A DNA stretch of 64,000 nt from a virus. Positions 3,601 through 36,112 of this stretch are shown in pieces (position 1 is the first letter of the stretch; the number at the start of each line of letters is the position of its first letter). The notes under the pieces were generated by a model. That model saw only the letters and a program-made list of their open reading frames with translations, made no database searches and was not told where the DNA came from. The translations under genes and the position numbers were made by a program. The DNA lies in the IMG/VR virus record IMGVR_UViG_3300045988_072133, positions 32,001 through 96,000 of that record. One strand, written 5' to 3'.

Positions 3601-3648
3601 AAAAGTCCTCAAATATACGAAAAATTTTTCATATATCCAAGGACTTTT
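3601..3648. promoter_or_regulatory. nested AT-rich palindrome (copy 1 of recurring motif) upstream of exonuclease gene
   Basis: AAAAGTCC...ATATACGAAAAATTTTTCATATAT...GGACTTTT; inner 24-bp palindrome with one mismatch, outer 8-bp arms. Confidence 0.4.
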
Positions 3649-3682
3649 GTAAAAAAATAATAATTTCTATTATTTTTGGTAA

Positions 3683-4138
3683 TTATCTATCGGAACTAAG
3701 GTAGATATAACGATTCATAGTTTGAGCAAAATCATCTAAGATATTTACAATACCAGCATATCTGCCAGCAGTCATGCCAGACTTTAAATACTCAGCTTTT
3801 GCAGCTAGAACCTTTAAGATCTCCTTAGGATCTGTAGTGTTAGGAATATTAGGATTGATAATGCCATAACCAAAACGACTGTCATTTAGACCCATAATAT
3901 TCTCAGTAATATCATCAACATATTCTAATAGGTCATCATTAATGTCATCTATAAGTAGATGCAATGATTTGCTATAGGTATTCCAATGTATCTCCTTAAG
4001 TTTAAAGTATGAGCCATAAAGTTCATTAATGAAGGTTATAACTCTCTCGAAATCCATTTCCATACTAGATATATAATTACTCTCTGCTTTTGTCAAGCAT
4101 AACCATAAGTACTTCTTCGTCCATATCACGGGCTTCAA
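3683..4138 (-). CDS. hypothetical protein
   Basis: 151-aa ORF, operon-consistent. Confidence 0.5.
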   Translation of the reverse strand: MKPVIWTKKYLWLCLTKAESNYISSMEMDFERVITFINELYGSYFKLKEIHWNTYSKSLHLLIDDINDDLLEYVDDITENIMGLNDSRFGYGIINPNIPNTTDPKEILKVLAAKAEYLKSGMTAGRYAGIVNILDDFAQTMNRYIYLSSDR

Positions 4139-4373
4139 AGTAAGCTTCGATTAGCTTAATGACATCAAGAAGTTTGCACTCTACAGTGCCATGCAGGTTC
4201 TCACGAATGAGTTCATGAAGATCTCGTGAGTTGGAATGTATAATTTCCTTATACTCTTCCTCACTCAGAAAGTGATCCTCAAGGCTTTTCTTCATAGCAC
4301 TATGAGCAGCTTCAGATATCATCTCAAGTATTGACTCTGCAGATAGATTAACGTGCAGGTGTTTCTTCATCAT
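4077..4373 (-). CDS. hypothetical protein
   Basis: 98-aa ORF overlapping neighbours; helical/charged. Confidence 0.4.
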   Translation of the reverse strand: MMKKHLHVNLSAESILEMISEAAHSAMKKSLEDHFLSEEEYKEIIHSNSRDLHELIRENLHGTVECKLLDVIKLIEAYFEARDMDEEVLMVMLDKSRE

Positions 4374-4614
4374 AACTACGAGATTTAAGTGATTTGTGCT
4401 TATTATCTCTACCGCTATGACTTCTTTTGAGACTCAGTATACTTACCTTCACATCCTTTAAAGTTTCGATTATTTCTTTCTGAGATGAATCAATATGACC
4501 AAGATAATGTTTTACGTCATCCTGGAGAACTAGAATCTCTGCTAAAAGAGCTTTAATCTCTCTGTTAGGAGTGAAGAAATTCTTCATCTTCTGAATAAAA
4601 GTTACACTAGGCAT
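4348..4614 (-). CDS. hypothetical protein
   Basis: 88-aa ORF. Confidence 0.4.
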   Translation of the reverse strand: MPSVTFIQKMKNFFTPNREIKALLAEILVLQDDVKHYLGHIDSSQKEIIETLKDVKVSILSLKRSHSGRDNKHKSLKSRSYDEETPAR

Positions 4615-4924
4615 TCTTACTCTTAATATTTAAGAACTCTCTCTTAAACAAGTCAATGTCTTCTGGCCCAAAAGTAATACCCAGCAAGGTCGGCTTATTA
4701 GGCATCAATCTCATCATATCCTTCAGAGCATTAGACAATGACTCAATGTCGATGTTATCATTCCCATCCGTTAAGGCGTCTATAATAAACTTATACTTAG
4801 GCTTGCTAAGTATGTTATTAGCGCCATACATTGCTACTGGTGCCAAATAAGGCACTCCTAAGTTCATGGCAATAGTACGAATCGACGAATTTAATGCGGC
4901 TTTTAATATCTCTAAATCAGACAT
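4607..4924 (-). CDS. hypothetical protein
   Basis: 105-aa ORF. Confidence 0.45.
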   Translation of the reverse strand: MSDLEILKAALNSSIRTIAMNLGVPYLAPVAMYGANNILSKPKYKFIIDALTDGNDNIDIESLSNALKDMMRLMPNKPTLLGITFGPEDIDLFKREFLNIKSKNA

Positions 4925-4926
4925 GT

Positions 4927-5367
4927 TTACTTAATTTTATCTAGTAACTCAGGATGCTTGTCCAATAGATCTGCTACTTTCTGGAGCTTCTCTTGCTTAA
5001 CAGCAATCTCTTGCTGTGCCTTGGATTTAACATCTTTAATCACACTTAATAACCGTTCACCGGCTATCCTTCCTTCAGGGGTAGTAATGTATTCATTACT
5101 GAATTTATTGCCTAAAAAATTCATAAACCCTGATTCATAGATATTCTTAGCCTCAGAATATTCAGGAGATTTCTCAATTAATTTCTTCTCATCCTCTGTT
5201 AAATTAGATGAGATATTATTAATCTCCTCAAGTAGTGAATATTGAGGAGTACCACTTCCCATAGACTTAAGCGCCTCTATCTGTCCCTCTAACATTCGTA
5301 ACTGGTTCTCCTTAGTCAACGGTGATTGGAAACCTTGATAAGCAGACCCTACTGGATATCCATACAT
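4927..5367 (-). CDS. hypothetical protein (coiled-coil)
   Basis: 146-aa ORF, heptad-like charged sequence. Confidence 0.5.
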   Translation of the reverse strand: MYGYPVGSAYQGFQSPLTKENQLRMLEGQIEALKSMGSGTPQYSLLEEINNISSNLTEDEKKLIEKSPEYSEAKNIYESGFMNFLGNKFSNEYITTPEGRIAGERLLSVIKDVKSKAQQEIAVKQEKLQKVADLLDKHPELLDKIK

Positions 5368-5388
5368 AGTTGTAAAGATTACTAATTA

Positions 5389-5850
5389 CTACGGAGTAGG
5401 AGCGGATGTCCCTTTCGTAGATACAGCATATACGAAGTAACCTCTGTTAGATGCTAACATAGCTGCAGTGGGAGTAGAGTTTATCACATTCTGAGTAACC
5501 TTGCATACACAAGGAGGAATTATCATCCCTATAATCTTCTCAGAAGTAATATCCTCAACAGTAGGAACTGTTGAACTCTGGATTACAGCAGCATTGCTAG
5601 AATGTACTGTAAAAGTTCTACTCATATTGGTTACGTCTGTATAGTTTACCTGTAAAGCTAGATCTACTTTCGTTAAATAGTAAGTAGTTGAATCCAACGT
5701 GAACTCACTAGTATAACGAATAGTAGGAATTAACGTAGACGTAGGTGCTACGTCAGTCCTAGCAGGAGTGGGTAAACATACATTAAATTCAACTACTTGA
5801 TTTAATGTAGTTCCCTCACCAAAGTTAGTTATTACTGTTCGTTCCATCAT
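5389..5850 (-). CDS. hypothetical structural protein
   Basis: 153-aa Thr/Val-rich ORF in morphogenesis block. Confidence 0.5.
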   Translation of the reverse strand: MMERTVITNFGEGTTLNQVVEFNVCLPTPARTDVAPTSTLIPTIRYTSEFTLDSTTYYLTKVDLALQVNYTDVTNMSRTFTVHSSNAAVIQSSTVPTVEDITSEKIIGMIIPPCVCKVTQNVINSTPTAAMLASNRGYFVYAVSTKGTSAPTP

Positions 5851-5872
5851 GATCCCAATTAATTAGATTCAA

Positions 5873-6406
5873 TTACTGAACTACAGTAGTAGAGGAGCCA
5901 CATCCGAAACCAAAGGGATTGTTCATAGGAACAGCTACCTGCGGATAGGGCGGATAGCAAATCTCTCTGTAGGGAAGCCGGATCTCACCGTCAACTTTAT
6001 TCCAAGTTCGGGAATCCGTGTATCTCTCAGATTTAAGAGCTGAAATCTCTGCTAACAGAGGTTGTGTGGCTTCGATAGCAGCAACCTTCTTGTCAAGGTT
6101 TATAATACCCTGAGCCAGCTGGTTGGCATACTCACCAAGTCTCTGGTCAGCTCTGTTCGACTGAGAAATAATTTCTCTGTATAATTCTATGCCAACATTG
6201 TCAGCATATTTTTCAGCTGCTAAATTAGCAGCAGCGGCTTGGTATGCAGATACCAACTCCGATTGACCGTTGCAATTACCTCCGCCAAAGAGGCCACCCA
6301 ACAGTCCATTACCGCAACCGCTACCACGAAGGAGCCATCCTGCGGTACCTATAATGCCAAGAGTTAATCCGGCATTACCAACGCCTTTAGAAGCAAATTC
6401 TGCCAT
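5873..6406 (-). CDS. hypothetical protein with Gly-rich N-terminal segment
   Basis: 177-aa ORF; hydrophobic stretch then GGLFGGGNCNG Gly-rich region, then coiled-coil-like part. Confidence 0.5.
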   Translation of the reverse strand: MAEFASKGVGNAGLTLGIIGTAGWLLRGSGCGNGLLGGLFGGGNCNGQSELVSAYQAAAANLAAEKYADNVGIELYREIISQSNRADQRLGEYANQLAQGIINLDKKVAAIEATQPLLAEISALKSERYTDSRTWNKVDGEIRLPYREICYPPYPQVAVPMNNPFGFGCGSSTTVVQ

Positions 6407-6477
6407 AATTAGTGAAAGTTTTAAAAGTTAATTTGAACTAAATATAAATATATTTCGCGCAAAATATATATGTAATA

Positions 6478-6503
6478 GGACTACTGCCCGTAAGCAGTAG
6501 CCC
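6478..6503 (-). terminator. hairpin in 170-bp intergenic region
   Basis: GGACTACTGC-ccgtaa-GCAGTAGCCC 9/10 bp stem followed on minus strand by AT-rich run. Confidence 0.3.
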
Positions 6504-6576
6504 AATATTACTCTATTCAACTTTCACTAACTCTTATAAATATTACTTAATTATAGTAATTGCCCTAAACTATAAA

Positions 6577-7641
6577 TTAAGCTAAAATAGCTAAGATAAC
6601 TTCATCCAGTCCATTAGCAATAGTTCCTAAAGTCAGGGTCTCTTCCGTACCTTCCTGGGTAGTTGCACACAGAATTAGAAGCTGCTTTTCAGAAGCCTGA
6701 GGCGAAGTAGCTTCACCACGATAGAAGAACGCAAGATCTAATGAATCGTACTTATTCTCATAGTTAACCTTATATTTCGTCGTAATGTTCAACGGATAAT
6801 TGTTCATACGATAGAAATCACCAATTTCACCGTGATAGAAGTACTCAAGGTCAGCAGCAACCTTACCATTACCATCGCCAAGTGAACCACCTACAGTCTT
6901 CGTAAAGAGACCATTGTCTACATCCGAAGTATCAATCCAATCAAACGACTCAAAGTTGGTATTACCAGTAGATGAGATTGAAAGAACAGGATTAGGATAG
7001 ATATCGAAATTATAGGAACGAAGCTGTACTTTACCCATAATCCAAGGTTTCAGATTATCAGCAACTTCCTCAATAACAATCGTATCTGCAGTGCCTCCAG
7101 TTTCACCTTTAGCTGTAAGAACCGGCCAGTCAAGCTTATTGTACTTCTTGCCAGATACACCATACATCTTGTTAATCTGACTTGCAAGACCATCCGTAAG
7201 TTCTTTCGACAGAGTAGCAGCTTCAGTTGCAGAACTTGTAGTATATGATACTACTCCAACCATCTGATCTTCCTGTGAGCCAGACATAACTTCACGAATC
7301 ATAACACGGAGACTATACTCCGTATTAGGAGCAAGTTCAGCCTTATTAACCTTAATAGTTACTGTACGCGGTATGCCTACCTTAAAAGGCCTCTTAGCAT
7401 ATTGTCGAACCTTATCCTTTTCGATAATATCCGACTTCATTATGTCGGTATAAGCATTAGTGTACTGGATATAAAATTTCTCCACATCGCTAGCAAGCAC
7501 CTCACCAGCAGCAGGTTTACCTTGATCCCCAGTACCAACCTTAACAACTTTATTGCCAGTCTTTAGATCAATAACTTTGATATCGTTTGCAGAGTTTGCA
7601 ACAATGATCTGCCGAACAGCATTTTCAGTAAAATTTGCCAT
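6577..7641 (-). CDS. hypothetical virion protein
   Basis: 354-aa ORF in structural block. Confidence 0.5.
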   Translation of the reverse strand: MANFTENAVRQIIVANSANDIKVIDLKTGNKVVKVGTGDQGKPAAGEVLASDVEKFYIQYTNAYTDIMKSDIIEKDKVRQYAKRPFKVGIPRTVTIKVNKAELAPNTEYSLRVMIREVMSGSQEDQMVGVVSYTTSSATEAATLSKELTDGLASQINKMYGVSGKKYNKLDWPVLTAKGETGGTADTIVIEEVADNLKPWIMGKVQLRSYNFDIYPNPVLSISSTGNTNFESFDWIDTSDVDNGLFTKTVGGSLGDGNGKVAADLEYFYHGEIGDFYRMNNYPLNITTKYKVNYENKYDSLDLAFFYRGEATSPQASEKQLLILCATTQEGTEETLTLGTIANGLDEVILAILA

Positions 7642-7659
7642 ATTATAACATTAATTAAA

Positions 7660-8433
7660 TTATTCTACTCTGCGATTCAGAGCTATTTGTGTATTCAAAC
7701 TATTCTCTTTATAATCACGTGTAGCTAACTCTACAGCACGATTTATAATCAACTCCCAAAGGGTGGGGGAGATCTTATTATCTAAATTCCCATCAACATT
7801 TGCCTTACGTTCTCCCATGATAGAGAGGTTTCTGATACTAATCCATTCTGCTGAATCTAAGTCTACTAGTATAATAGGCTCAGGTTCTTTCATGTAAGTA
7901 TAAATGTATTGAAACTCTTTAGATACAAGATCTTCATTAGATATTAATGTGATTTGACGTACCGTTGTATCTTCATTGGTAGTCTCATCAACACGCCATA
8001 CTCTTAGATCTGAAGGTCTCCTAAAAGGATTCCTCATAAGCCTATAGGCTTCATCAATATCAATAGGTTTAACTACTATATTACGAGTCTTTAAAGTGGG
8101 GTCATTAGGACCCTTAATACGCTCGGCTAATAGCTGAAGTACGTTAGCATCTAAGTCTATAACATAGGAATTAAGCCCCTCAATCTGATTGGGAATAAGT
8201 GTTGTAATAACAGCCGTTCCTGTAAGAATATAACGTGGAAGGAGCGATTTAACAGCTTCAGTACTGTCGATGGTATCACCACCCATAGTACCGTTATAAT
8301 AGCCTGAAACAACCTCTCTATGCGCTTGAGTTAAGAATAATGATATTTCATACTCATTAAGACCTGGTGCAGCTGCACTTAAGATATTATCATAATGTAG
8401 ATTAAATTTCTGAATCAGTTCCGCTGCAGTCAT
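7660..8433 (-). CDS. hypothetical virion protein
   Basis: 257-aa ORF. Confidence 0.5.
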   Translation of the reverse strand: MTAAELIQKFNLHYDNILSAAAPGLNEYEISLFLTQAHREVVSGYYNGTMGGDTIDSTEAVKSLLPRYILTGTAVITTLIPNQIEGLNSYVIDLDANVLQLLAERIKGPNDPTLKTRNIVVKPIDIDEAYRLMRNPFRRPSDLRVWRVDETTNEDTTVRQITLISNEDLVSKEFQYIYTYMKEPEPIILVDLDSAEWISIRNLSIMGERKANVDGNLDNKISPTLWELIINRAVELATRDYKENSLNTQIALNRRVE

Positions 8434-8441
8434 AATGTAAA

Positions 8442-9440: not shown

Positions 9441-9463
9441 AACTTCTCCCTTTATTTAAATGA

Positions 9464-9493
9464 AGGTAAGTGGGATTTAACTCCCACCTACCT
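9464..9493 (-). terminator. hairpin downstream of putative capsid gene (attenuator/terminator-like)
   Basis: AGGTAAGTGGGA-tttaac-TCCCACCTACCT, 11/12 bp; on minus strand followed by AUUUAAAUAAA. Confidence 0.35.
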
Positions 9494-9505
9494 ATAAATG
9501 AGTTA

Positions 9506-11020
9506 TTACTCAGTAAGAATATTCGGAATCATACTCATGGTACGAGTAGGATCCAGGATTAATACACCCAGAGTAGCCATCTTGTGGATCTGTGCAGAAT
9601 CCTCAGGATACGACATATACGGGTTGTTCATACCACCAGTAAAAGGATTGCGCAGGCCCCACATGTAACCACGATACTCTTCCTTACCACGAACCTTAGC
9701 TAGCTGAATATTAGGCTCCTCAGTAGTACCAATGCACATAATGTCATAACGGTACGACTCTGCAACACCGCCATTCGGGTGCATGATCTTGTTACGTACC
9801 TGATCGTCGTAGAGAGGATTAACATCAATCTTAATAGTTACACCATTAGGAGCTTTGTACTCTACGAACTGGAAACCTGCACTCAGAGCATTCTCATGAA
9901 GCTTGCTCGAAGTCTTTGAAATAATAGCAGGATTAGCTGCATTACCACCAAGATACTGGAATACAGTCCATCCAGATACTACATCAAGAACTGCCTTATG
10001 GAACTGTACAGCACCACGAGAACCAGTCTCAATAACAAAGGTACGATCCGAGTAATCAAGCTTCGACTCTGACAGCTCGAAGAGAGCATCCTCAAGAGTC
10101 TTCAGACTAAACTTAGTGTAATAACGAGTATTACCTACAGACATCTGAGCACGGATACCATCGCCCATCTTAATGACATTACCGGACTTACCAAAGTTCA
10201 GATACTCACCGTTCTTATTACGGTTCGAGCGGCCAAACATTATAATGTTCGACTTATATTCTGAGAAGGTTTCCTCCAGCTTATAGTCTACATGGTGAAT
10301 CCATGAATTTGCTACTTGCTTGTTACCAGCCTTATCTACAAAAGGTATACCAATAGCCAGCTTCTTATCAAGAATATTTCCAGGAACCTTAGTCTGGATA
10401 CGAATGTGTGACCATTCATTACGCATAGCAGTAGAGCTAGTATAACGAACATCACCTACTTCCAGCGACATCGTATCCTCAACAGGAGCATATTCCCAGC
10501 TGAACCGTTTACCAGCAACAAGCTGACTTACGGGCATGCCATCAAGAACGCCTCCCATAAGTTCTACGGTATAAACTGCATTCGAACCTTCAAGTCTCGG
10601 CTGACCCAGAATACGCAGGGGATAAACCTCATTAAGTTCACCTACGATTACCTCGCCATCAGCAAACCAGTCTTCGGGGAAAACAACCTTGAAGGGCTGT
10701 CCGTTGGCACCAGCAAAAGTCTCGGTATCCCCAGTATTCTCAAGAACTTGATCACTCATATCACGAGCCTCTACAAGGGGAATATTACGACGAGAACTGC
10801 CAATGACTTCCCAAGTGTACTCATCATCAGTTTCAAAGTACTTAACAGGGAATCTCTGGAGATAACTATCGAGGCTCTTACCACGATGCTGAGCCAGAAG
10901 CTGTACCATAATATTAGTAGCTTTCTGAGGCGCACGACCAAAAATAGCTCCGATGTGGTTATCTCGGGTTAAGCCTTTCCACGAAGTGAAGGCTTTCATT
11001 TGAAATTTACCTAGTTGCAT
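9506..11020 (-). CDS. putative major capsid protein
   Basis: 504-aa ORF immediately after an acidic helical scaffold-like gene (classic scaffold-then-MCP order); followed by a hairpin; assignment by position and size only. Confidence 0.45.
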   Translation of the reverse strand: MQLGKFQMKAFTSWKGLTRDNHIGAIFGRAPQKATNIMVQLLAQHRGKSLDSYLQRFPVKYFETDDEYTWEVIGSSRRNIPLVEARDMSDQVLENTGDTETFAGANGQPFKVVFPEDWFADGEVIVGELNEVYPLRILGQPRLEGSNAVYTVELMGGVLDGMPVSQLVAGKRFSWEYAPVEDTMSLEVGDVRYTSSTAMRNEWSHIRIQTKVPGNILDKKLAIGIPFVDKAGNKQVANSWIHHVDYKLEETFSEYKSNIIMFGRSNRNKNGEYLNFGKSGNVIKMGDGIRAQMSVGNTRYYTKFSLKTLEDALFELSESKLDYSDRTFVIETGSRGAVQFHKAVLDVVSGWTVFQYLGGNAANPAIISKTSSKLHENALSAGFQFVEYKAPNGVTIKIDVNPLYDDQVRNKIMHPNGGVAESYRYDIMCIGTTEEPNIQLAKVRGKEEYRGYMWGLRNPFTGGMNNPYMSYPEDSAQIHKMATLGVLILDPTRTMSMIPNILTE

Positions 11021-11035
11021 AATTTATTAATTTAA

Positions 11036-12196
11036 TTAAACGTCAATTCTATCAATGAAGTCAAAGGATTCTTCCTCAGGCTCCATATTAAAGTTAACGC
11101 TACCATCATCCAAAGTTCTAGTATTGTTGAGTTTATGCTCTAATTCTCGTAGAGCACCTTTCTTAGCTTTAGTTAACTTCTGATTAACTAACTTATCAAT
11201 ATTCTTAAAGCCATCCGTAAGTGTATACATTAGAGAAAGGTAGTATTGAGCATCCAAAGAATTCTCTCTAATATACTTCTGAATAGGAGTCATAATATGA
11301 CCATCCTCATCTTTGTAACTAGCCTTAGTCATATTATTATAGACCTTCTCTCTAGTACCCTTATCAAGGTTAATACCATCAAAAGGTTTATCAGTATTTA
11401 GTACCTTAGCTTTAAACTCTTTAAGCTGTTTTTCCTGAGCAGCTTTTGCAGCAGCAGCAGCAGCTTTTCTTTCCTCAACAATAGAATGATACTCTTCTTT
11501 ATAGAAGTCTAAACAGCTTTCAAGAGCTGCCTTAGCATCTTCAATATCTGTACCAGCATTAATAGATCTCTCTACTTCTCGCTGAGCACGTTCTTTCTTA
11601 AATCCACGATTAATATAATCACTATATATAATCTTCTTACGAAGTGTTTCTGCATCATCAGATTCAGCTTCAAGCTCCTCTTCAGATATATCAGAGAGAT
11701 ACTGAATAGCTCCCTCATAACGCTGAATAACATCAGGTTCCACACCGGCATTAAGCATATCTCGGATACGTTTCTGCTCAGCATCTAGACCTGCATCTAT
11801 CTGCTTCTTTAAAGCTGCAGCGAAAGATTCACTATCCTTTATCTCTTTGATTTCATCTTCGCTTAAGTCCGGGAAAATACCATCTTCGTAACAAGCCAGT
11901 GCGACGGAAGCAAGTATTGGTGTATTGGGAGAAGTTTTATCGCTAGGATCCTTGTCCTTAGTGGTATCTTCCCCGCTTAAGCTAGGATAAGGATCTTCTC
12001 CTTCTCCTTCCTCAGCACCTCCGCCCTCTTGCTTACCCTTAAAAATCCCTTTAGGATCAGGGTCCGCATCTGTACTGGTATCTGTAGGAGGATCATTATC
12101 GGGAGCTCCAAACTCCAGATCTTCCTCCTCAATTTTAATATCAATAGCGTCGTCTCCGAACGCATTGAGTAAATCCATTGATAAAGTTTCTTCCAT
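11036..12196 (-). CDS. putative scaffolding protein
   Basis: 386 aa, highly acidic low-complexity N-terminal region (EEGEGEDPYP, DTSTDADPDPK) and Ala/Lys/Glu-rich helical repeats (KAAAAAAKAAQEKQLKEFKAK). Confidence 0.45.
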   Translation of the reverse strand: MEETLSMDLLNAFGDDAIDIKIEEEDLEFGAPDNDPPTDTSTDADPDPKGIFKGKQEGGGAEEGEGEDPYPSLSGEDTTKDKDPSDKTSPNTPILASVALACYEDGIFPDLSEDEIKEIKDSESFAAALKKQIDAGLDAEQKRIRDMLNAGVEPDVIQRYEGAIQYLSDISEEELEAESDDAETLRKKIIYSDYINRGFKKERAQREVERSINAGTDIEDAKAALESCLDFYKEEYHSIVEERKAAAAAAKAAQEKQLKEFKAKVLNTDKPFDGINLDKGTREKVYNNMTKASYKDEDGHIMTPIQKYIRENSLDAQYYLSLMYTLTDGFKNIDKLVNQKLTKAKKGALRELEHKLNNTRTLDDGSVNFNMEPEEESFDFIDRIDV

Positions 12197-12252
12197 ACTT
12201 CTCCAAAAATTTTAATCTTAATTAGTTAATCTCTTTACATAGATTAATGCAA

Positions 12253-12276
12253 ATATATGAATATTTTTTCATATAT
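12253..12276. promoter_or_regulatory. AT-rich palindrome (copy 2) upstream of scaffold-like gene
   Basis: ATATATGAA-tatttt-TTCATATAT perfect 9-bp arms; shares ...TTTTTCATATAT core with 3613-3636 and 35814-35835. Confidence 0.4.
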
Positions 12277-12331
12277 AAAATACTTTTAGAAATTCACTAA
12301 TAAATTACACCAATAATTACTACTTTATTTC

Positions 12332-12775: not shown

Positions 12776-12777
12776 AA

Positions 12778-17117: not shown

Positions 17118-17140
17118 AATACAATTTTACTAAGTTAAAA

Positions 17141-17172
17141 TAGGGAGGGGTGGCAGTTTCCCCCCCCCCCTA
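17141..17172 (-). terminator. poly-G hairpin terminator-like element
   Basis: Minus strand reads G11-aaacugcca-CCCCUCCC-UAUUUU; DNA has a C11 homopolymer (17160-17170). Confidence 0.45.
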
Positions 17173-22197: not shown

Positions 22198-22224
22198 AAA
22201 GGGAGGAGCTATTGCCCCCCCCCT
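22198..22224 (-). terminator. poly-G hairpin terminator-like element between portal and tail gene
   Basis: Minus strand reads GGGGGGGGG-caauag-CUCCUCCC followed by UUUAUUAUUAU; DNA has a C9 homopolymer. Confidence 0.45.
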
Positions 22225-22230: not shown

Positions 22231-24627
22231 TTATTTACTAGTACTAGATGGTTTAGGCTTGGCTTTCTTAATAGCAAGATCTTTTTCTTTAATGTCTATC
22301 TCCTTTGATAACTTAGTCTTATCAAAAGCTAATCTTTCATTAAACTGCCTTATCTGTTCATCTAACTTCGCTCGTTCCATAGAGTTGTCTTGAACTTCTG
22401 GGACTTCATTCTCTGCATTTCCAGATTGTTTAATATGCTCAATAAGAATCTTAGTGTCATTATCGCGCTGATTAAGCATATCTTGGAAATTCATCTCAGC
22501 CTGCTTCATTTCCATCTGAGTCTGCATTTGCTGTTGTGCTATTTCTTGTTCCTGCTGAGCTTGTTCAGCTTGACGTTCTTGAATAGCTTGCTCGTCTTTC
22601 TCAATAGTCCTACGAATCTCTGACAGAGATGATGACGTATAAATCTTCATTATTGAAGAGAATGAGAGAGTTTGATTCTGCAAAGCAGCTTGTGCTAAAG
22701 CATCAAGTTTTGAAGCGAGATTCTGAGTTTCAGGAGAGGCATCTACTACAATTCCATAGTCGCTATCTGCAAAAGTGTCTCCATCAATTTCAAGAGATTT
22801 TATAGCTCCATCAGAGGTGATATACTGGAATTTCTTATTTCTACCTCTCATAGCTATTTTAGCTGTCTCTAAGAAACATTCAAGGGCTCTCCTTTTAACA
22901 TCATCGTGCATTGTAAATAACCATTCTGTAATATGAGAAGATTGTAAATTTGATCTTTCAACACCACCAACAGTTTCACGGTTACTAATCTGACCCTCTC
23001 GCTGTCGAGTAATACCAGCAACCTCTCCCATCTCATTTTTAATAAATTCTAGGAGATTAATGTGTTCCTGAATATAATTACCCTGTTCAGCATCTATAAC
23101 TCCATTAGACTGAATATTTAGAGCTCCTACAACCTTACCTTGAGCAGCTCCTCCATTTCCCTCCTTAAAGCTATCTGTAACAGCAACATGATTTACTTTT
23201 GCATAGTATAACCACTTGTCTATCTCCCAGCCTTTAGGAACCATAGCAAGATCTAGTTTTACAATTTTACCCCAGTTAGCAGCAATAGCTTTATTAAGCC
23301 TATCGTAGATAACGTCGTAAAAATAAGCAAAAGGCTTCATCATATCTACTAAAGAGAAAGGTCTAGAATCATTAAGGTTATACATAGATCCTACAATACC
23401 AAAATGACATCTAGATGGATTAGAAAGTCTATTATACTGTACTATCCTAGGTCTCATATTAACATAAATATCTGGACCTATTTTAGTACCTTCCCATGCT
23501 TCATTAATCCAAAAGATCTCTTCTTCTTCACCAGCTTCTTTATCTATAATGTAGGTTTCTGGATAAAAATCAAAGAGCTCTTCGCCAGTCTCAGGATCAT
23601 AAGATTTTACCTTCTTGATCTTTCTCTTACTCTTCCAATAAAGTCTTAATACTCTAATATTACCTTGGAGATCATAGTAGTTACTCGTTGCTGAAAATCC
23701 AGATTGTCCCATCAGTAGAAAATTCTCTATTACAGTACCTCCTGAAATATCTGTGCCATCGATCTCAGCAGTATTAATAAAGGCATTTCTTTCATCAATG
23801 TTGTACATAGAATCACTACTAAAAGTACTAGCTAGTTTATCTATACTATCAACATCTTTTTTAGATAGAACATCAAAGTAAGTATCTAAGATTCTACCTG
23901 GACTCCAAAAGTCTATAAGTATTATTAGATCTGCATCCTCAACTTTATTAGAAAAACCATTTTTGAAAATATGAACTTTTAAAGGATTAAGTCTTTCAAA
24001 AGTAGGCTCGCCCCCAACAATATCACATTGATAGATTTCCTCACCACAAATCATTGCATCCATAAACCCATCATTAAATATTCTGGGTATATTTAGCTCT
24101 TTCATGTAATGAGAAAGAACAGTACTAGCTCTCATTTCGATAATATCTTGCCATTGATAATCAAAATAGTAAGATAACTTATCTAGTTCTTTATTAAACT
24201 CCTCCTCTGACAAGTTCTCATCTTCTATCATAGCCTGAACTTGTTCTTGGAGCATTGCTAATTTACTATTCTCTATCTCTGAAATAGAATTGGGATTAGT
24301 TACAACAACTTTAAATTCAAATCTTCTCTTCGCTTCTTCTCCTTGGAGAACATGAAGCTTTGAGTTCATAATAGGGAAATGCTGAATAGATTCTGGAACA
24401 TATAGTGCATTGACATTGTCTGGATTAAGAATTAACTCTACATCTCTCATATCTAAAACACCATTTATGAGATTATAGTTAATTCTCTTCTTCAACAGAG
24501 AATTCCGCACCATATTGCCAAAATAGTAAGTTCTTTTGTCGGCCCAATCAAGATGCTGTTTTCTCCACTCCTTAGTTTTTTTACTATAAGACAACATCTG
24601 CGGGGGTAAGTTCTTTAAATCTATCAT
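22231..24627 (-). CDS. putative portal protein
   Basis: 798-aa ORF immediately downstream of large terminase gene (canonical TerL-portal order); Gln/Glu-rich C-terminal tail. Confidence 0.6.
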   Translation of the reverse strand: MIDLKNLPPQMLSYSKKTKEWRKQHLDWADKRTYYFGNMVRNSLLKKRINYNLINGVLDMRDVELILNPDNVNALYVPESIQHFPIMNSKLHVLQGEEAKRRFEFKVVVTNPNSISEIENSKLAMLQEQVQAMIEDENLSEEEFNKELDKLSYYFDYQWQDIIEMRASTVLSHYMKELNIPRIFNDGFMDAMICGEEIYQCDIVGGEPTFERLNPLKVHIFKNGFSNKVEDADLIILIDFWSPGRILDTYFDVLSKKDVDSIDKLASTFSSDSMYNIDERNAFINTAEIDGTDISGGTVIENFLLMGQSGFSATSNYYDLQGNIRVLRLYWKSKRKIKKVKSYDPETGEELFDFYPETYIIDKEAGEEEEIFWINEAWEGTKIGPDIYVNMRPRIVQYNRLSNPSRCHFGIVGSMYNLNDSRPFSLVDMMKPFAYFYDVIYDRLNKAIAANWGKIVKLDLAMVPKGWEIDKWLYYAKVNHVAVTDSFKEGNGGAAQGKVVGALNIQSNGVIDAEQGNYIQEHINLLEFIKNEMGEVAGITRQREGQISNRETVGGVERSNLQSSHITEWLFTMHDDVKRRALECFLETAKIAMRGRNKKFQYITSDGAIKSLEIDGDTFADSDYGIVVDASPETQNLASKLDALAQAALQNQTLSFSSIMKIYTSSSLSEIRRTIEKDEQAIQERQAEQAQQEQEIAQQQMQTQMEMKQAEMNFQDMLNQRDNDTKILIEHIKQSGNAENEVPEVQDNSMERAKLDEQIRQFNERLAFDKTKLSKEIDIKEKDLAIKKAKPKPSSTSK

Positions 24628-24727
24628 AGCATTAACTTAATTACATAATTTGTACAAAGATAAGTAATTATCTTCAAATTTCCAAGACGTTCAAAAGTTT
24701 ACTAATAGTTTTCATAAATATCTACTA

Positions 24728-27603: not shown

Positions 27604-27604
27604 A

Positions 27605-27635: not shown

Positions 27636-27641
27636 GTTAAA

Positions 27642-28121: not shown

Positions 28122-28329
28122 AAAACTTGCCTAAGCTAGGAACATTAATGCTAGTCTGCATCTTTGTAAACTCTTCTTCTGTCATTTCCTCATTTACAGG
28201 AACATTTTCCAATGTATTCTTAACCCAATTCCAATATTCTCTATAAGCTATTTCTACTACGTCATCTGGCATATCTAATTTCTTAGCAGCAGCCAAAATT
28301 ATATCTTGGAGAGTCTTATTATTTATCAT
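28006..28329 (-). CDS. hypothetical protein
   Basis: 107-aa ORF; long overlap with downstream gene suggests one start is mis-set. Confidence 0.35.
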   Translation of the reverse strand: MINNKTLQDIILAAAKKLDMPDDVVEIAYREYWNWVKNTLENVPVNEEMTEEEFTKMQTSINVPSLGKFYATYSRAQFLNKRFKEYAKKAVQDKEGDTSIHEDDSDI

Positions 28330-28732
28330 AACTAATCCTAAAATTTAGTAATAGCCTATAAGAGTCCTCTTCATATTCTAAAGAGGGAATGTATCTTTTA
28401 CTAATTGTATTATTAGTAATAACTCCTGCTTTTCGTAGATTTGTTAATACTGACTGAAAGTTTCCCGGAGATATGCCTAAGCTTCCTACAATACCTTTTT
28501 TAATCTCATCAGTGAACAAAACTTTGTCCAGTATATCATCATCTGTAATTGTTCTAGATAATTCAAATCTACGTTGTAATAGTGCTGCTAACACTGCGAC
28601 TTCCCTACCAGGTAATCTATGTAAAGGCTTAAGAAACTCTAGCCAGAGCTTAAAAAAGTTGAGACTAGAGGTCTTTAAATTGGTAGAGATAGACACAATG
28701 TCAGTATTCTTAGTCATATCCCGCTTACTCAT
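28319..28732 (-). CDS. hypothetical protein
   Basis: 137-aa ORF. Confidence 0.45.
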   Translation of the reverse strand: MSKRDMTKNTDIVSISTNLKTSSLNFFKLWLEFLKPLHRLPGREVAVLAALLQRRFELSRTITDDDILDKVLFTDEIKKGIVGSLGISPGNFQSVLTNLRKAGVITNNTISKRYIPSLEYEEDSYRLLLNFRISYDK

Positions 28733-29040: not shown

Positions 29041-29042
29041 AA

Positions 29043-31052: not shown

Positions 31053-31053
31053 A

Positions 31054-31446: not shown

Positions 31447-31459
31447 AATTAATTATTGA

Positions 31460-31642
31460 TTATTTCTCCTTATTTACTACTTCCTTGCCAAACTTATCAA
31501 TAGCCCAGTAGGAAGCGATACCTGCAGCATAACTGCACAGACTCAACAATGTCCCATAAAAAGGGACAATTTTAATCATTGCGACAATAGCTAAAACAAC
31601 AGCTGTGCCAATCCCAATTTTAATCCAAGTTTTCTTGCTCAT
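31460..31642 (-). CDS. small membrane protein
   Basis: 60 aa, two hydrophobic helices. Confidence 0.4.
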   Translation of the reverse strand: MSKKTWIKIGIGTAVVLAIVAMIKIVPFYGTLLSLCSYAAGIASYWAIDKFGKEVVNKEK

Positions 31643-31661
31643 AAAAGTTAAATTTAATTAG

Positions 31662-31734
31662 CTGGGAGAACAGGGTTCGAACCTGCGTTACCTTGATTAA
31701 CAGTCAAGTGCCTAAACCATTCAGCCATCTCCCA
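31662..31734 (-). tRNA. trnN: tRNA-Asn (anticodon GTT)
   Basis: Minus-strand 73-nt cloverleaf: acceptor TGGGAGA/TCTCCCA, U8, anticodon stem CTTGA/TCAAG with loop CTGTTAA (GUU), T-loop TTCGAAC, discriminator G. Confidence 0.75.
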
Positions 31735-31882
31735 AAGAAAGGGTTTTATGGACTTTGTAAAGAACTTTACATTACCAAGGGTACACCCTTACCCGTGCCA
31801 GCAGAGAACCTGCTGCATTTGACATGAATAATAGTATTTATTGACAACTACCCTTGTAGGGTTACACAAGCTAAAATAATAC

Positions 31883-32131
31883 CTATAAATACAAACTATA
31901 GCTTAGTAAACTATTAAAGGCTAGGAATTTAATTAGAAACCCAATACTACCTCCTAGTACTGTTAATATCCAATCAATCCAATCCCATTTACCTCCATGC
32001 TGTTTATCTTTAAATTCCATTCCGCTAGCTACCCCTATAGCTAATCCCAAATCAATAAAGCCTACAGGTATAGCATAAATAAAATGCTTTCCTCTATTCG
32101 AGGCTTTAAACCATTCTAATATTCTTTTCAT
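31883..32131 (-). CDS. two-TM small membrane protein (holin-like candidate)
   Basis: 82 aa with two hydrophobic helices and charged linker. Confidence 0.4.
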   Translation of the reverse strand: MKRILEWFKASNRGKHFIYAIPVGFIDLGLAIGVASGMEFKDKQHGGKWDWIDWILTVLGGSIGFLIKFLAFNSLLSYSLYL

Positions 32132-32186
32132 CTTAAATGTGATACAAAGATAAGTAAAATTTCCTATATTAGGAATGTTATAAGTA

Positions 32187-33041
32187 TTATTTTAATTTAT
32201 TCCCAATAAAATCACTTATATTTTTATAAATTTCTGCTGGATAGCATTCAGTTCTACCGTTAAAGTAAACTAAAGGCATCTTTCTTATAGGTCTAAACTG
32301 TTTATGGATTAATTTCTCTAGGTTATATATTTTTGAAGCATCTCCTTCAAATACATCTATTACTTCTACAGAATAGATTTTAGGTATTTGAATTAATCTG
32401 GTATTAATATTTTTATGAGAAGTGATTCCTACTTTTAAGAACTCCCCTTCTATTTCAGATTTTAACTTTACAATATATAACTTTCCTATACCATTATTTT
32501 TTGAACACTGCTTCTTAAAAATATGTCGAGAATATCCTTTATATTCTAATGCACACTCTGGACATCCTGAGTGATTATGAATAGCATTAGAAACACTTAC
32601 TTCAAAATCACCATGTATAGGACAAGTAATTATTACTTTATCTCTACTAGAGATAGGGTTACATTTTTCATAAGTATAGAAATTACCTAAAGAATCTTTA
32701 ATCTTTTGTAAATACTTAGATTTCTTAGTAGTAAGATTTAAGATAGTCTCTACATTAGGTGAGTACTTTTGTACTCTACAAAATTGGGCAGTTTCCTTAT
32801 TTAAGACTACAATTTTAGTTCCTTCCAACTCAATAGCTTCTAAAGAGGTTTCCTTAAAAGTATTTTCATTAAGATACTTTAGATAAGAACTAGAAATCAT
32901 ACTTTGTACTCCAAAAGTAAATCTACTAACTGAACCTTTTACACATCTGTAAATGTAACCATCTTTCTCTATAAGAAACTCTATATCAGATTCTCCTATA
33001 ACATTGAGATTGTATCTTTCTTTATATAAATTGTAATTCAT
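32187..33041 (-). CDS. GIY-YIG superfamily (T5orf172-like) nuclease with zinc finger
   Basis: GKLYIVKLKSEIEGEFLKVGITSH...TRL resembles GIY-x10-YIG..R core in C-terminal half; CPIHGDFEVS..HNHSGCPEC zinc-binding motif. Confidence 0.4.
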   Translation of the reverse strand: MNYNLYKERYNLNVIGESDIEFLIEKDGYIYRCVKGSVSRFTFGVQSMISSSYLKYLNENTFKETSLEAIELEGTKIVVLNKETAQFCRVQKYSPNVETILNLTTKKSKYLQKIKDSLGNFYTYEKCNPISSRDKVIITCPIHGDFEVSVSNAIHNHSGCPECALEYKGYSRHIFKKQCSKNNGIGKLYIVKLKSEIEGEFLKVGITSHKNINTRLIQIPKIYSVEVIDVFEGDASKIYNLEKLIHKQFRPIRKMPLVYFNGRTECYPAEIYKNISDFIGNKLK

Positions 33042-33126
33042 AGTATATTGTATTAATTTTTTACAATATACTAAAAATATTTGACATTTCCAAATATTTT
33101 AGCAGTTATTTTACAAATTTAATAAA

Positions 33127-34851
33127 TTAATAATCAAAAGGATTATAAAATCCTAATCTAACAGAGTCTAAATCTCTCTCTACACCTTTATTTCTACCAA
33201 GTTCTCTCTTATTTAAATATCTCTTAGAATGTCTCTTCATATTAGGAATATCTCCAGAATGTGCTGCCTTAGTTAAGAATTTATAATCTTTAAGTCCTGG
33301 ATTATATTGAACATCTCCTAAGACTGACTGAACCTTAAACCCTAAGCTATCAAAGGATCCTTCACTAAATCTGCTATCATAAATTTTTCTTGCCTTATCA
33401 AGATATACTCCAGCTATACTATCTAAAGTATTATTAACTTGCTCGTCTGTTAAATAACCTTGTTTTTCCACAATTTTTTGTAGAGGATCTTTCTTTCCCT
33501 TATTAAGTTTAAACCCATATCCTATAGTCTTTTTACCACCTTCTACACTATCGTGAGGATACCAACGATTAGTCTTTTTATCATACCCATTATTTGATCT
33601 ATCCTTGCCATTCTCTTCTTCTACAAATCTGCGAGTCATGTCAGCTCTAACTGCACGCTCCTTTTGGATATCTCTTCTTTCTACATAGTTAGTCATTGGA
33701 AAATCAGTATATTCAACTTTAGGTATAATAGAAATTCCGGTATATCCTCCACTATCAAAATTATTAACTCTACGAAGTGTAGGTTTATAAGGAGAAGTAG
33801 CATATTCCCCAGGTCTGAGAGTATAATATCTCCCTGTAGATGAATCAATATAAAGGCTATAACCATCAGCCTTATCCTCCCTTATAGCCATACCAAAAGT
33901 AGGATGTTTGGGATTTTTAAGAATCATACCAGTTCTCGGGTCTCGCGAAGCCCAATGCTTAGATTTAGGATCATACATATCACCTACTTCTTCAGCAGTC
34001 CTATAATCATAATACTGGTCAGGATTATCATACTCATCTCTTAAAGGACCTCCAAATGCAGCTAGTTTCCTACCATCCTTTTCAAGGCTAGACTTTGTAG
34101 AAGCTACATTATTAAGCAAGTGTAATAGATATTCATCAGTATAACGATTGACTATATCAGTGTCATCATACTTCTCACGCCATTTCTTAATATCTTCTAC
34201 TGAGTATTTCTTAGTAGGATCAAGCTTATTTAAATACCTAAACTGCATTAAGCGAGAGTAGATCTCATTAGCAGAATCTTTATAAGAATTATATTGCTTA
34301 CCCTCTTGCAACTTATCCCCCTCAAAGCCATACCTAATAGCATTAATTTGAGGATCAGCATTTAAAGAGTGTGTTAACTCATGGACATCAGTACCAGCAT
34401 AAGGACTAATGTATGATATAGCATGAGTAGAGGGATTATAAGCTCCTCCAGTATGATTAGATAGCTTCTTTATAGACTCAAATTCTGAGTCAGGAACATG
34501 TGGAAACTTCGTATTACCTAGTACATCATATTGCTTAACAGTACGTAAATTCTTTAGCTGATTCTGGTACTCTTTAAAAGCAGCTCTATCAGACCAACTC
34601 TTAGGCAATATACTATAAGGAATCATTGTAGAACCACTATTTCTAAAGTTCTCACGAAACTGCTCTTGCCTATTAGATAACCACGAAGCTATGAAATCCT
34701 GAGCTTGAGTACTATGAACATTATCTACTTCACCACCATCAGCAAACTTATTGTAATGATCCCTCATAGCACTAAGTTGGGTCACTCCATTTTGTAGATA
34801 GGTTTTCATTAAATTAGACCTATCTGACATTGATAACTCTTCCCACTTCAT
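33127..34851 (-). CDS. multidomain lysin: HExxH metallopeptidase-like region + C-terminal T4-lysozyme-like (GH24-like) domain
   Basis: TDVHELTHS (HExxH); C-terminal EGGKKTIGYGF..LTDEQVNNTLDSI..FDSLGFKVQSVLGDVQYNPG parallels T4 lysozyme E..[31 protein letters not shown]. Confidence 0.5.
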   Translation of the reverse strand: MKWEELSMSDRSNLMKTYLQNGVTQLSAMRDHYNKFADGGEVDNVHSTQAQDFIASWLSNRQEQFRENFRNSGSTMIPYSILPKSWSDRAAFKEYQNQLKNLRTVKQYDVLGNTKFPHVPDSEFESIKKLSNHTGGAYNPSTHAISYISPYAGTDVHELTHSLNADPQINAIRYGFEGDKLQEGKQYNSYKDSANEIYSRLMQFRYLNKLDPTKKYSVEDIKKWREKYDDTDIVNRYTDEYLLHLLNNVASTKSSLEKDGRKLAAFGGPLRDEYDNPDQYYDYRTAEEVGDMYDPKSKHWASRDPRTGMILKNPKHPTFGMAIREDKADGYSLYIDSSTGRYYTLRPGEYATSPYKPTLRRVNNFDSGGYTGISIIPKVEYTDFPMTNYVERRDIQKERAVRADMTRRFVEEENGKDRSNNGYDKKTNRWYPHDSVEGGKKTIGYGFKLNKGKKDPLQKIVEKQGYLTDEQVNNTLDSIAGVYLDKARKIYDSRFSEGSFDSLGFKVQSVLGDVQYNPGLKDYKFLTKAAHSGDIPNMKRHSKRYLNKRELGRNKGVERDLDSVRLGFYNPFDY

Positions 34852-35273
34852 CGTATAACTCCTCCTAATTTATCAGCAGATTTCTCTACAAAGAACTTGT
34901 AATAATCATAACTCTTATGATAATAATCCTTAATTCTACAGAGTATATTATGACATCCACTAAGCAATCCTACAGTGGGTAAATACAATGGTCCTAACCA
35001 CTTACTTTGGATCCCATGACCACTCTCATGCTTAATGGAATTCTTTAAACTAAGCCTAATATTCTTGTTATTCCAATCGTATCTATTATAGTCTAAAAGT
35101 ACATAGTATCCTAGGGATATTCCCCCAGGGAATTTATCATAAATGTATACTTGTTGATTACCATACTCAAAAGTCTTTAACCTTGTAGACTCATAGAAAG
35201 GTAGCAATATTGCCCCTAATAAACTCTGGGGAAACTCCCATGTCCATCTCCTAATCTTTACCCATGTGCTCAT
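34848..35273 (-). CDS. small HExxH-motif protein (putative zinc metallopeptidase-like)
   Basis: IKHESGHGIQS motif; start overlaps upstream stop by 4 nt (coupled to lysin gene). Confidence 0.4.
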   Translation of the reverse strand: MSTWVKIRRWTWEFPQSLLGAILLPFYESTRLKTFEYGNQQVYIYDKFPGGISLGYYVLLDYNRYDWNNKNIRLSLKNSIKHESGHGIQSKWLGPLYLPTVGLLSGCHNILCRIKDYYHKSYDYYKFFVEKSADKLGGVIR

Positions 35274-35467
35274 CGCTTCTTACGTTTACGCCTCTTACTA
35301 GGCTTTACTAAAACTCTATAATCTGTAGATACCTCTACTAAATTACCATCCTCATAGGTTAACCGTAAATCTAAAAAATCTTTGGACTTCTTAATCCTTA
35401 CGTAATCTATCGAAAGATCGTAGTCCTCAACCTTAATCTCTCCTACCTGAATGCTTCTTCTTCGCAT
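35270..35467 (-). CDS. small basic protein
   Basis: 65 aa, C-terminal KPSKRRKRKKR. Confidence 0.4.
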   Translation of the reverse strand: MRRRSIQVGEIKVEDYDLSIDYVRIKKSKDFLDLRLTYEDGNLVEVSTDYRVLVKPSKRRKRKKR

Positions 35468-35609
35468 ACTTCATGCCCTCCTTGACATATTCAAAAAACT
35501 TATTCAACGTCTCCTCACTTAGAGGATATTCATCAGGACTCTCAATAGGATGATCCCTCAAAAACTCTTCAAAATCTTCGAAGGTCAACACCTTCTTCTC
35601 GTTACTCAT
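35433..35609 (-). CDS. small acidic hypothetical protein (58 aa)
   Basis: Hand-translated ORF MSNEKKVLTFEDFEEFLRDHP... filling the gap between flanking ORFs; ATG overlaps upstream stop (ATGA); below track size cutoff. Confidence 0.3.
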   Translation of the reverse strand: MSNEKKVLTFEDFEEFLRDHPIESPDEYPLSEETLNKFFEYVKEGMKYAKKKHSGRRD

Positions 35610-35788
35610 AACTTTAGTAAATCATTAATCCTAGCTACTTCATGGATAACCTCACCTAAATGCTCAGCAATGCTATCGTAAAAGTAAAACTCACCGTTAG
35701 TGGTACTATGACCACATAACTCCCTAGCTCTAGACTGCTCCTTGCGTAAAGCATCTATAACCTTCTCTAAACTACTTCTCTTACTCAT
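35606..35788 (-). CDS. first gene of minus-strand unit, hypothetical
   Basis: 60-aa ORF adjacent to divergent promoter region. Confidence 0.4.
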   Translation of the reverse strand: MSKRSSLEKVIDALRKEQSRARELCGHSTTNGEFYFYDSIAEHLGEVIHEVARINDLLKL

Positions 35789-36112
35789 AAAGATAATTTA
35801 TAAAACTTTTGCAATATACAAAAAATTTCCCATATTTCCAAATTTTTAAATAATAAAATTTTTTACAAAATAAAATTTTTTCCGGAGAAAATGTTTGAGG
35901 GTGACATATTCCCCACATTGCCCCCACCCCCGCAACCTTTTGGGGTTCTCCCCCCGTCAGGTTTCTTAGGAGGGTTAAAGAAGGCGACCCGGCCAGCCTT
36001 CGGAGGACCGAACGGTCAGTGCATCTTGCACCGTAGTTACGGAAACCTCTCGGTATAATCGTAGCCTCACCGACACAAAGCAGGTTACAACGTATCATAA
36101 ACTTATCAAGTT
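35789..36112. promoter_or_regulatory. divergent intergenic control region (strand switch) with AT-rich half and GC-rich structured half
   Basis: All upstream genes are minus, all downstream genes plus. 35790-35890 is extremely AT-rich and contains an ATATACAAAAAATTTCCCATAT palindrome-like motif. 35890-36110 is GC-rich with a TATAAT hexamer at 36054-36059. Confidence 0.45.
35814..35835. promoter_or_regulatory. degenerate copy 3 of the ATATAC-A6-TTT-YYCATAT motif at head of minus-strand block
   Basis: ATATACAAAAAATTTCCCATAT, 26 bp upstream of the first minus-strand start codon. Confidence 0.35.

Follow-up and report, generated by a model that had tools for sequence, protein, structure and literature searches.

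Three AT-rich intergenic palindromes of a crAss-like phage as probable members of a six-site family of host-type late-arm promoters, one of them within a terminator-like hairpin

We have analysed a 64,000-nucleotide stretch of viral DNA (IMG/VR record IMGVR_UViG_3300045988_072133, positions 32,001 to 96,000; hereafter the window) with regard to three AT-rich, palindromic sites in the intergenic gaps of its minus-strand genes, here named S1, S2 and S3. The window belongs to a crAss-like phage of the Steigviridae/Asinivirinae and showed 87% DNA identity with crAssphage cr108_1 (Pipoluvirus) over the tested segments and about 66% identity with Bacteroides phage crAss001. Its genes form two divergent arms. 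The minus-strand arm, from about 36 kb down to position 1, carries structural and late genes such as those of the terminase, the portal and the major capsid protein, and the plus-strand arm, from about 36 kb to 64 kb, carries small open reading frames (ORFs), tRNAs and replication genes and represents the early arm. All three sites lie in the late arm. We consider it likely that they are three of six promoters from which the host RNA polymerase (RNAP), with its primary sigma factor, reads this arm, and that S1 is at the same time part of a terminator-like hairpin.

The three strings were found where the original prediction had placed them, each in a gap upstream of a minus-strand ATG. S1 (3610–3640, minus strand; TTGGATATATGAAAAATTTTTCGTATATTTG) has a -33 TTG at 3640–3638 and the -7 box TATATTTG at 3617–3610, 55 nt upstream of the ATG at 3554, and reads on the sense (minus) strand as TTGG-N19-TATATTTG (full string ccTTGGatatatgaaaaatttttcgTATATTTGagg). 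Its gene encodes an exonuclease of the RNase-H fold (Pfam PF13482) and heads a block that leads toward tail genes and the gene of an HU/IHF-like protein (553–1119). S2 (12250–12280, minus strand; TTTTATATATGAAAAAATATTCATATATTTG) reads on the sense strand as TTTT-N19-TATATTTG (full string TTTTatatatgaaaaaatattcaTATATTTG), with its -7 box at 12257–12250, 53 nt upstream of the ATG at 12196, and precedes the gene of a 386-residue homologue of phi14:2 g092, behind which lies the major capsid gene. S3 (35811–35841, minus strand; TTGGAAATATGGGAAATTTTTTGTATATTGC) reads as TTGG-N19-TATATTGC (full string TTGGaaatatgggaaattttttgTATATTGC) and lies 22 nt before the ATG at 35788 of a 60-residue ORF, the first of the late arm and of the minus-strand block; exact copies of S3 occur in 11 IMG/VR contigs. 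The frame shared by the sites consists of TTG at -33, a -7 box of the form TAnnTTTG and, between the 4-mer and this box, a gap of 19 nt, and the same layout is readable as a near-consensus sigma-70 promoter, TTGnnn-N17-TAnnTT.

A position weight matrix (PWM) of 31 columns was trained on 23 external sites from six other genera (crAss001, DAC15, IAS virus, cr85_1, cr106_1 and phi14:2), which are promoter-like sites in late-arm intergenic gaps; the sites of the window were excluded from the training. When both strands of the window (128 kb) were scanned at a cut-off of 10 bits, with shuffled sequences as the null, exactly six matches were obtained against 0.87 expected, and four of these reached at least 15 bits against 0.09 expected. 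All six are on the minus strand, in the sense orientation and in intergenic gaps of the late arm, and the distance from box to ATG is 13–55 nt. The original prediction had made its case depend on a motif frequency above that of shuffled sequence and on an association with 5' ends, and both were borne out by this search, in which all matches stand near the 5' ends of genes. No match was antisense or within coding sequence on either strand of the 64 kb, and none lay in the 28-kb early arm, which agrees with transcription of the early genes by the virion RNAP. S1 was the top match (30.4 bits), S2 scored 24.8 bits and S3 12.0 bits. The list of three sites was thus right in that all of them belong to one promoter family but incomplete, as three more members lie at 24655–24685, 32145–32175 and 33063–33093.

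The first of these (24655–24685, minus strand; TTGGAAATTTGAAGATAATTACTTATCTTTG; 23.7 bits) precedes the portal gene by 27 nt (ATG at 24627); it is conserved in cr108_1 and shows 6 of 12 dyad pairs. The second (32145–32175, minus strand; TTCCTAATATAGGAAATTTTACTTATCTTTG; 18.3 bits) lies 13 nt before the ATG at 32131 of an 82-residue ORF, behind which a tRNA-Asn is located at 31734–31661. The third (33063–33093, minus strand; TTGGAAATGTCAAATATTTTTAGTATATTGT; 14.3 bits) lies 21 nt before the ATG at 33041 and is very like phi14:2 P108 (TTGCATATGTCAAATATTTTACGTAGTTTTG), with near-identity over ATGTCAAATATTTT. The 284-residue ORF behind it (32187–33041, minus strand) has DUF723 and T5orf172 domains (Pfam), is homing-endonuclease-like and is absent from cr108_1, in which the orthologous promoter precedes a 13-codon ORF and tRNA-Asn instead; this ORF looks like a mobile insertion downstream of a pre-existing promoter.

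Comparison of the six sites showed the -7 box TATATTTG at S1 and S2, TATCTTTG at the portal and 32145 sites, and TATATTGY at S3 and 33063. TTGG-N19 is present at S1, S3, the portal site and 33063, but S2 has TTTT and 32145 has TTCC in this place; the orthologue of S2 in cr108_1 has TTTG at -33. Across 32 family sites, T1, T2, T10, T24, A25, T28 and T29 are invariant, and G3, T30 and G31 are nearly so. The pattern of columns is asymmetric, and there is extra conservation between the boxes, at T10 (without exception), at G11 and A12 and in a T-run at positions 17–20. The motif sites stand ahead of homologues of g092, the portal gene, the IHF block and a tRNA.

The family is known from phage phi14:2, whose middle promoters were described as an 'extended tripartite motif' with -35/-10-like blocks upstream of g070, g075, g108 and g110 (Drobysheva et al., 10.1101/2020.03.07.982082). 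In that phage, in vitro transcription with E. coli sigma-70 holoenzyme yields the 5' ends seen in vivo, rifampicin inhibits middle and late transcription, and the early genes are transcribed by the virion RNAP and have no common upstream motif; in crAss001, IAS virus and relatives, similar motifs precede tRNAs and homologues of the g092, portal, IHF and RNAP genes (10.1101/2020.03.07.982082). The late genes of crAss001 have also been attributed to the host RNAP. The comparison with the published motif was made from genome sequences. The phi14:2 sites P075 (TTGCataattcaaatatttatatTACTTTTG), P108 (TTGCatatgtcaaatattttacgTAGTTTTG) and P110 (TTGGatatctcagaattaagtatTATCTTTG) share the frame TTGS-N19-TAnnTTTG. 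The window has the same arrangement of TTG(S)ATAT..., middle block and TAnnTTTG as P070, P075, P108 and P110 of phi14:2 (assigned to 'beta-crassvirinae genus VI', now Steigviridae/Asinivirinae), and its sites likewise stand upstream of the g092 homologue, the portal gene, the IHF/tail tubular block and a tRNA, in the structural arm only. On the other hand, the Pipoluvirus-like genus is not named in the text of the preprint, the promoters of the window are predicted whereas those of phi14:2 were mapped, and the 24-bp dyad of S1 and S2 is completed by a GAA...TTC pair specific to their lineage. S1 is the positional analogue of the experimentally mapped P075. We had considered its gene as a homologue of the g075 metallophosphatase and dropped this, given the Pfam assignment as an RNase-H-fold exonuclease; S1 and P075 are therefore positional analogues only.

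The primary sigma factor of Bacteroidota (sigma-A) reportedly recognises the consensus -33 TTTG / -7 TAnnTTTG, which goes back to Bayley et al. in 2000. The window sites resemble it in the exact -7 box of S1 and S2, in the TTG at -33 of S1 and S3 and in the constant spacing of 19 nt, and differ from it in their conservation of T10, G11, A12 and the T-run at 17–20 and in the TTTT of S2 at -33. An atlas of flavobacterial transcription start sites places the -7 TAnnTTTG box at -12 to -5 and includes a variant TAnnTTGY in Flavobacterium (PMC9723704). The boxes of S3 and 33063 (minus strand, 35811–35818 and 33063–33070) are of this variant form, with a distance from TA to TTG that is one base shorter, and fit the 'SM5' TAnnTTGY class of Flavobacterium psychrophilum; they could represent a separate regulatory class, for example of the earliest late-arm units. 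The suggestion of a 'phage-specific promoter element' therefore stood as far as the promoter is concerned, but the architecture is the -33/-7 layout of host Bacteroidota sigma-A, in a family already known from phi14:2 and previously uncharted in this genus. By analogy with phi14:2 and crAss001, the host RNAP would use these promoters, and transcription would start about 5–7 nt downstream of the -7 box. The units so headed would be the first late ORFs, the homing-endonuclease-like ORF, the small ORF with tRNA-Asn, the portal gene, the g092 homologue with the capsid gene, and the exonuclease with the IHF and tail/virion genes.

S1 differs from the other promoters of the window in that it alone has a hairpin structure. 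A 48-bp element (3601–3648, minus strand) with the arms AAAAGTCC...GGACTTTT encloses S1 and is followed by UUUUAGUUU; it begins 34 nt past the stop codon (3683) of the upstream gene. The nested 48-bp palindrome of the original prediction is confirmed at the RNA level, with a fold of -24.8 to -25 kcal/mol and a z-score of -6.7 to -7.7. None of 200 shuffled sequences folded as well, and a terminator scan flagged the element with 20 pairs and a T-tail. The helix contains four G·U pairs, and the sense strand folds at -24.8 kcal/mol against -15.4 kcal/mol for the antisense strand. In cr108_1 and 10 of 11 IMG/VR relatives, the hairpin is present without any change (100% identity). The eleventh (L020, IMGVR_UViG_3300045988_048344) carries a variant of the cassette with AUCC/GGAU in place of GUCC/GGAC as the outer stem, a compensatory replacement of G-C by A-U that preserves the hairpin. 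In the same relative (region 985–1994), an inserted 283-residue ORF separates the S1-type cassette from the exonuclease gene, and the cassette is directly followed by a second very stable hairpin (-24.6 kcal/mol, z = -8.3) with a U-run. We had also noted a small hairpin in the 5' untranslated region of S1 that seemed compensatory between relatives; it was dropped, as its z-score was +0.6 and its folds ranged from -0.3 to -4.8 kcal/mol.

Eight other gut genera (crAss001, DAC15, IAS, cr106_1, cr85_1, bajarodcaudo virus 1, cr126_1 and cr111_1) also have an enclosing hairpin at the promoter in the equivalent position, which precedes the block running toward the genes of HU/IHF-like, tail tubular and virion proteins. 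Measured against the promoter frame, the centre of the hairpin is displaced by 1 nt from genus to genus, and for this reason we assessed these hairpins by folds of each sequence and shuffles rather than by counting pairs in an alignment. Across the nine gut genera, including that of the window, the z-scores ranged from -5.0 to -9.7, and at least three U come after every hairpin. The outer stems vary between the genera (AAAACCC/GGGUUUU, AAACUG/CAGUUU, AAAACCA/UGGUUUU, AAACUC/GAGUUU and others). Most genera have 2–5 G·U pairs in the helix, and because of these pairs the sense RNA is 8–18 kcal/mol more stable than the antisense RNA in seven of the nine. Pairing that is conserved while the sequence varies, together with strand specificity and a U-tract, indicates an RNA element; the G·U pairs and the differing stems argue for a structure of the nucleic acid itself rather than a half-site recognised by a protein in double-stranded DNA.

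Considering its stable stem-loop, the U-tract directly behind it and its location downstream of a stop codon, the hairpin at S1 most likely acts as an intrinsic terminator on transcripts that run through from the upstream unit, and it overlaps the promoter. On the one hand, it is similar to intrinsic (Rho-independent) terminators, including bidirectional ones with A-tract, hairpin and U-tract, in its G/C-containing stem base, the 3' U-tract UUUUAGUUU and a 5' A-tract. On the other hand, it differs from them in that the stem of about 24 bp is mostly A-U and G-U, is almost free of a loop and holds a complete promoter. Long duplexes are typical substrates of RNase III, as at the intergenic processing sites of T7, and the helix would also suit a processing site of this type. 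In the mechanism that we propose, the symmetry of S1 would have its function in the RNA. Read-through RNA from the upstream operon would fold the S1 region into the hairpin of about 24 bp with its U-tract, leading to termination or processing. Transcripts begun at S1 would start inside the 3' arm; as they would lack the 5' arm, they would form no hairpin and escape termination. A single 48-bp cassette would in this way end one unit and start the next.

We surveyed hairpins at 42 non-redundant predicted promoters from 12 genomes and found that 17 overlap a stable hairpin (z at or below -3.6). Nine of the 17 are the enclosing hairpins of the S1 locus, and the crAss001 site at 9539 has a weaker enclosing helix. 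The other seven form a different type, with a 5' arm (TCACTTAT...) upstream of -33 and the -33 TTG in the loop; the 'middle block' of the tripartite motif forms the 3' arm (ATAAGTGA), and the T-run of the spacer comes next. These loop-type promoters were found in other genera at L026 17640–17704, L028 5312–5376, L029 2315–2379, 16014–16078 and 16982–17046, and L034 306–370 and 11690–11754. Based on this survey, we suggest tentatively, and with considerable doubt, that the host-type late promoters of gut Asinivirinae might be systematically built into RNA hairpins, either in the enclosing form (nine genera, ahead of the block with the IHF, tail and virion-RNAP genes) or with the -33 element in the loop. 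If so, the cassette would be a dedicated device that links the start of one temporal class to the end, or the RNase III processing, of the class before it, and the conserved middle block would reflect a constraint of RNA structure and not a contact of the RNAP. A hairpin that encloses or overlaps a promoter is common in the gut genera, and the phi14:2 preprint mentions no hairpins, terminators or palindromes (10.1101/2020.03.07.982082). The promoter-in-hairpin cassette appears to be new as far as the literature consulted shows, yet it is an elaboration of ordinary parts and a modest observation.

The three sites had been linked by near-identical palindromic cores. This description suits S1 (11 of 12 pairs) and S2 (10 of 12), which are identical at 26 of 31 positions, but not S3, which has 7 of 12 pairs, shows no significant fold (z = -1.1) and is not matched by the degenerate pattern of S1 and S2 at up to two mismatches. 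S3 groups with the other sites as a promoter, not as a palindrome. For comparison, 24-mers from late-arm intergenic DNA have on average 3.7 complementary pairs of 12, and the other promoters have 6–7. The small hairpin of S2 was insignificant (z = -1.4 to -1.6). Across the 32 family sites, the mean dyad count was 5.25 of 12 and that of column shuffles 5.31, indicating no covariation, although a protein operator would be compatible with this test alone and the argument is carried by the comparison of orthologs. Only S1 and S2 reach 10 or more pairs. The idea that the consensus of the family is itself palindromic, which would make the strongest promoters resemble palindromes, was rejected, as the external consensus TTGTATAAGTGAATTATTTTACTTATCTTTG has only 5 of 12 pairs, and among the external sites the PWM score did not correlate with the dyad count (Spearman rho -0.02).

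The orthologues of S2 in the IMG/VR relatives and cr108_1 read ...ATATATGAAAAAATATTCATATAT..., ...ATATATCAAAAAA..., ...ATATGTCAAAAAA..., ...ATATATCAATAAA... and ...TTATATAAAAAAATAATTGTATAT..., with dyad counts in this order of 10, 9, 8, 10 and 7 of 12. The G of GAA changes to C or A in them with no change of its partner in TTC, and the energy of the small hairpin drops from -5.7 to about 0 kcal/mol while TATATTTG is invariant. The S2 locus of six other genera is not palindromic. This loss of symmetry next to an invariant -7 box argues against a conserved operator for a dimer. The palindromic look of S1 and S2 probably arises from 'ATATAT' after the -33 element, 'TATAT' in the -7 box and a spacer that passes from A-rich to T-rich, the GAA...TTC pair happening to finish the dyad in this genus.

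Several points weigh against our assignment of S1–S3 to the host-type promoters. The bare regular expression TTGN-N18-20-TAnnTTTG was not enriched in the window (5 occurrences against 3.5 expected); its information is too low, and for this reason it was replaced by the externally trained PWM, so that the signal needs the extended motif together with position and strand. S2 has TTTT instead of TTG at -33 in this phage, and S3 and 33063 have TATATTGY instead of TAnnTTTG. No other member of the family, whose external consensus is not palindromic, is as palindromic as S1 and S2, and an extra, lineage-specific function, such as the site of a regulator, could exist at these two. Regarding the hairpin, that of phi14:2 P075 is weak (z = -2.3), some of the G·U pairs are forced by the fixed letters of TTG and TTTG, which makes the strand asymmetry weaker evidence, and a stem that is long, rich in AU and nearly without a loop is unusual among intrinsic terminators and could also be a substrate of RNase III. 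In addition, all functional assignment for this phage and genus is by analogy.

The alternative raised by the original prediction was an operator for a dimeric regulator. In this case, a phage protein would bind the 24-bp dyad of S1 and S2 (ATATAYGAA-N6-TTCRTATAT), across the spacer and the -7 box, and time or repress the two units; candidates encoded nearby are a VpsT-like protein (28319–28732) and a DUF5856 DNA-binding protein (3683–4138). S1 and S2 are indeed outliers of the family, with a probability of 0.023 that the maximum reaches 11 pairs in column shuffles, their dyad is a lineage-specific addition, given the non-palindromic external consensus, and the timing of late transcription needs some regulator, of which none is known. 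A dyad between upstream and downstream elements and a long spacer are also reminiscent of MerR-type promoters with spacers of 19–20 bp, but 19 nt is the normal Bacteroidota geometry, the dyad is unconserved and no gene of the MerR family was identified. What unites the six sites is the -33/-7 frame and not the dyad, since the half-sites are common to S1 and S2 only and are lacking at S3 and the other three promoters. Half-sites also change among the orthologues of S2, and at the S1 locus of other genera the complementarity is kept rather than the sequence, with G·U pairs that would be mismatches in double-stranded DNA. Promoters of this family in phi14:2 work with the RNAP alone in vitro (10.1101/2020.03.07.982082). 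We therefore regard an operator as unlikely; a very recent one at S1 and S2 would be compatible with the ortholog data.

Recognition by a phage-encoded RNAP, of the virion or another, possibly on an extruded DNA hairpin as at the early promoters of coliphage N4, appears very unlikely. crAss-like phages carry a virion RNAP, their programme has been likened to that of N4, sites of the S1 type are hairpins, and the authors of the crAss001 work speculated that middle-phase RNAP subunits might act on late genes. However, the virion RNAP of phi14:2 reads early genes that share no upstream motif, and middle and late transcription there is rifampicin-sensitive and starts correctly with the sigma-70 holoenzyme (10.1101/2020.03.07.982082); in the window, the motif is missing from the early arm, where promoters of the N4 type would be expected, it fits the host -33/-7 consensus, and most members of the family have no hairpin. 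Simple chance, with AT-rich, low-complexity palindromes of no common function in intergenic DNA, is already disfavoured and highly improbable. In its favour, ATATAT is not over-represented (45 against 64 expected), paired ATATAT boxes are insignificant as a motif (ATATAT-N8-16-ATATAT occurs twice against 0.59 expected, which 13% of shuffles reach), and sixteen 24-mers of the window have at least 10 of 12 pairs. Against chance, the external PWM selects these sites and three more, all on the correct strand and in the correct position, the degenerate pattern covering S1 and S2 is expected only 0.01 times, and the sites are conserved across relatives while their flanks vary; the z-scores of the hairpins add to this. 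An invertible promoter in the manner of Bacteroides, with a recombinase switching S1 on and off, would account for inverted repeats that directly flank the promoter of the S1 locus in the nine gut genera, and such promoters are common in Bacteroides hosts according to the literature. Yet the arms abut a 31-bp promoter in an element of about 48 bp, compared with 183–186 bp for the invertons of the hosts, a -7 box is lacking when the element is read in reverse, the late-arm annotations of cr108_1 and crAss001 include no recombinase, and the U-tracts after the arms and the G·U pairing fit an RNA element. Near-perfect palindromy would also make an inversion almost invisible and pointless. We give this explanation practically no weight.

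The host-type promoters, as we read them, provide, for an uncultured crAss-like genus, a testable map of the late arm with six sites. The promoter model of phi14:2 would transfer to this genus, which would be useful for annotation and for the engineering of gut phages, and the current picture of crAss transcription is unchanged. At one locus, in nine gut genera of one of the most abundant virus groups of the human gut, a promoter lies inside a strand-specific hairpin; such a cassette could explain the insulation of middle and late units and the tripartite motif.

An uncertain member of the family, with an AT-rich palindrome that was overlooked by the original prediction and is the fourth in the window, is located at 6445–6475 (minus strand; TTACATATATATTTTGCGCGAAATATATTTA), 38 nt before the ATG at 6406. 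It shows a TTxx-N19-TAnnTTTx frame and 10 of 12 dyad pairs at a shifted centre (17.5), but scored -6 bits with the external PWM. The palindrome itself (ATATATATTTTGCGCGAAATATAT) has 10 of 11 pairs and a GCGC core and is located after a terminator hairpin. Exact copies of the site occur in 12 IMG/VR contigs; cr108_1 lacks the whole segment.

Elsewhere in the late arm, terminator-like hairpins follow two structural genes at about 17130–17160 and at 22199–22224 (minus strand). They have runs of 9–10 G paired with C/U-rich arms, a composition that is unusual for an AT-rich genome. At the junction of the divergent arms, 35880–35960 and 36640–36830 are G/C-rich and contain long C-tracts and short C-rich repeats (cctcccccc...), and the GC skew switches its sign at about 37 kb. 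The C-tract regions may represent an origin or a terminus, or else the place where the early region begins.

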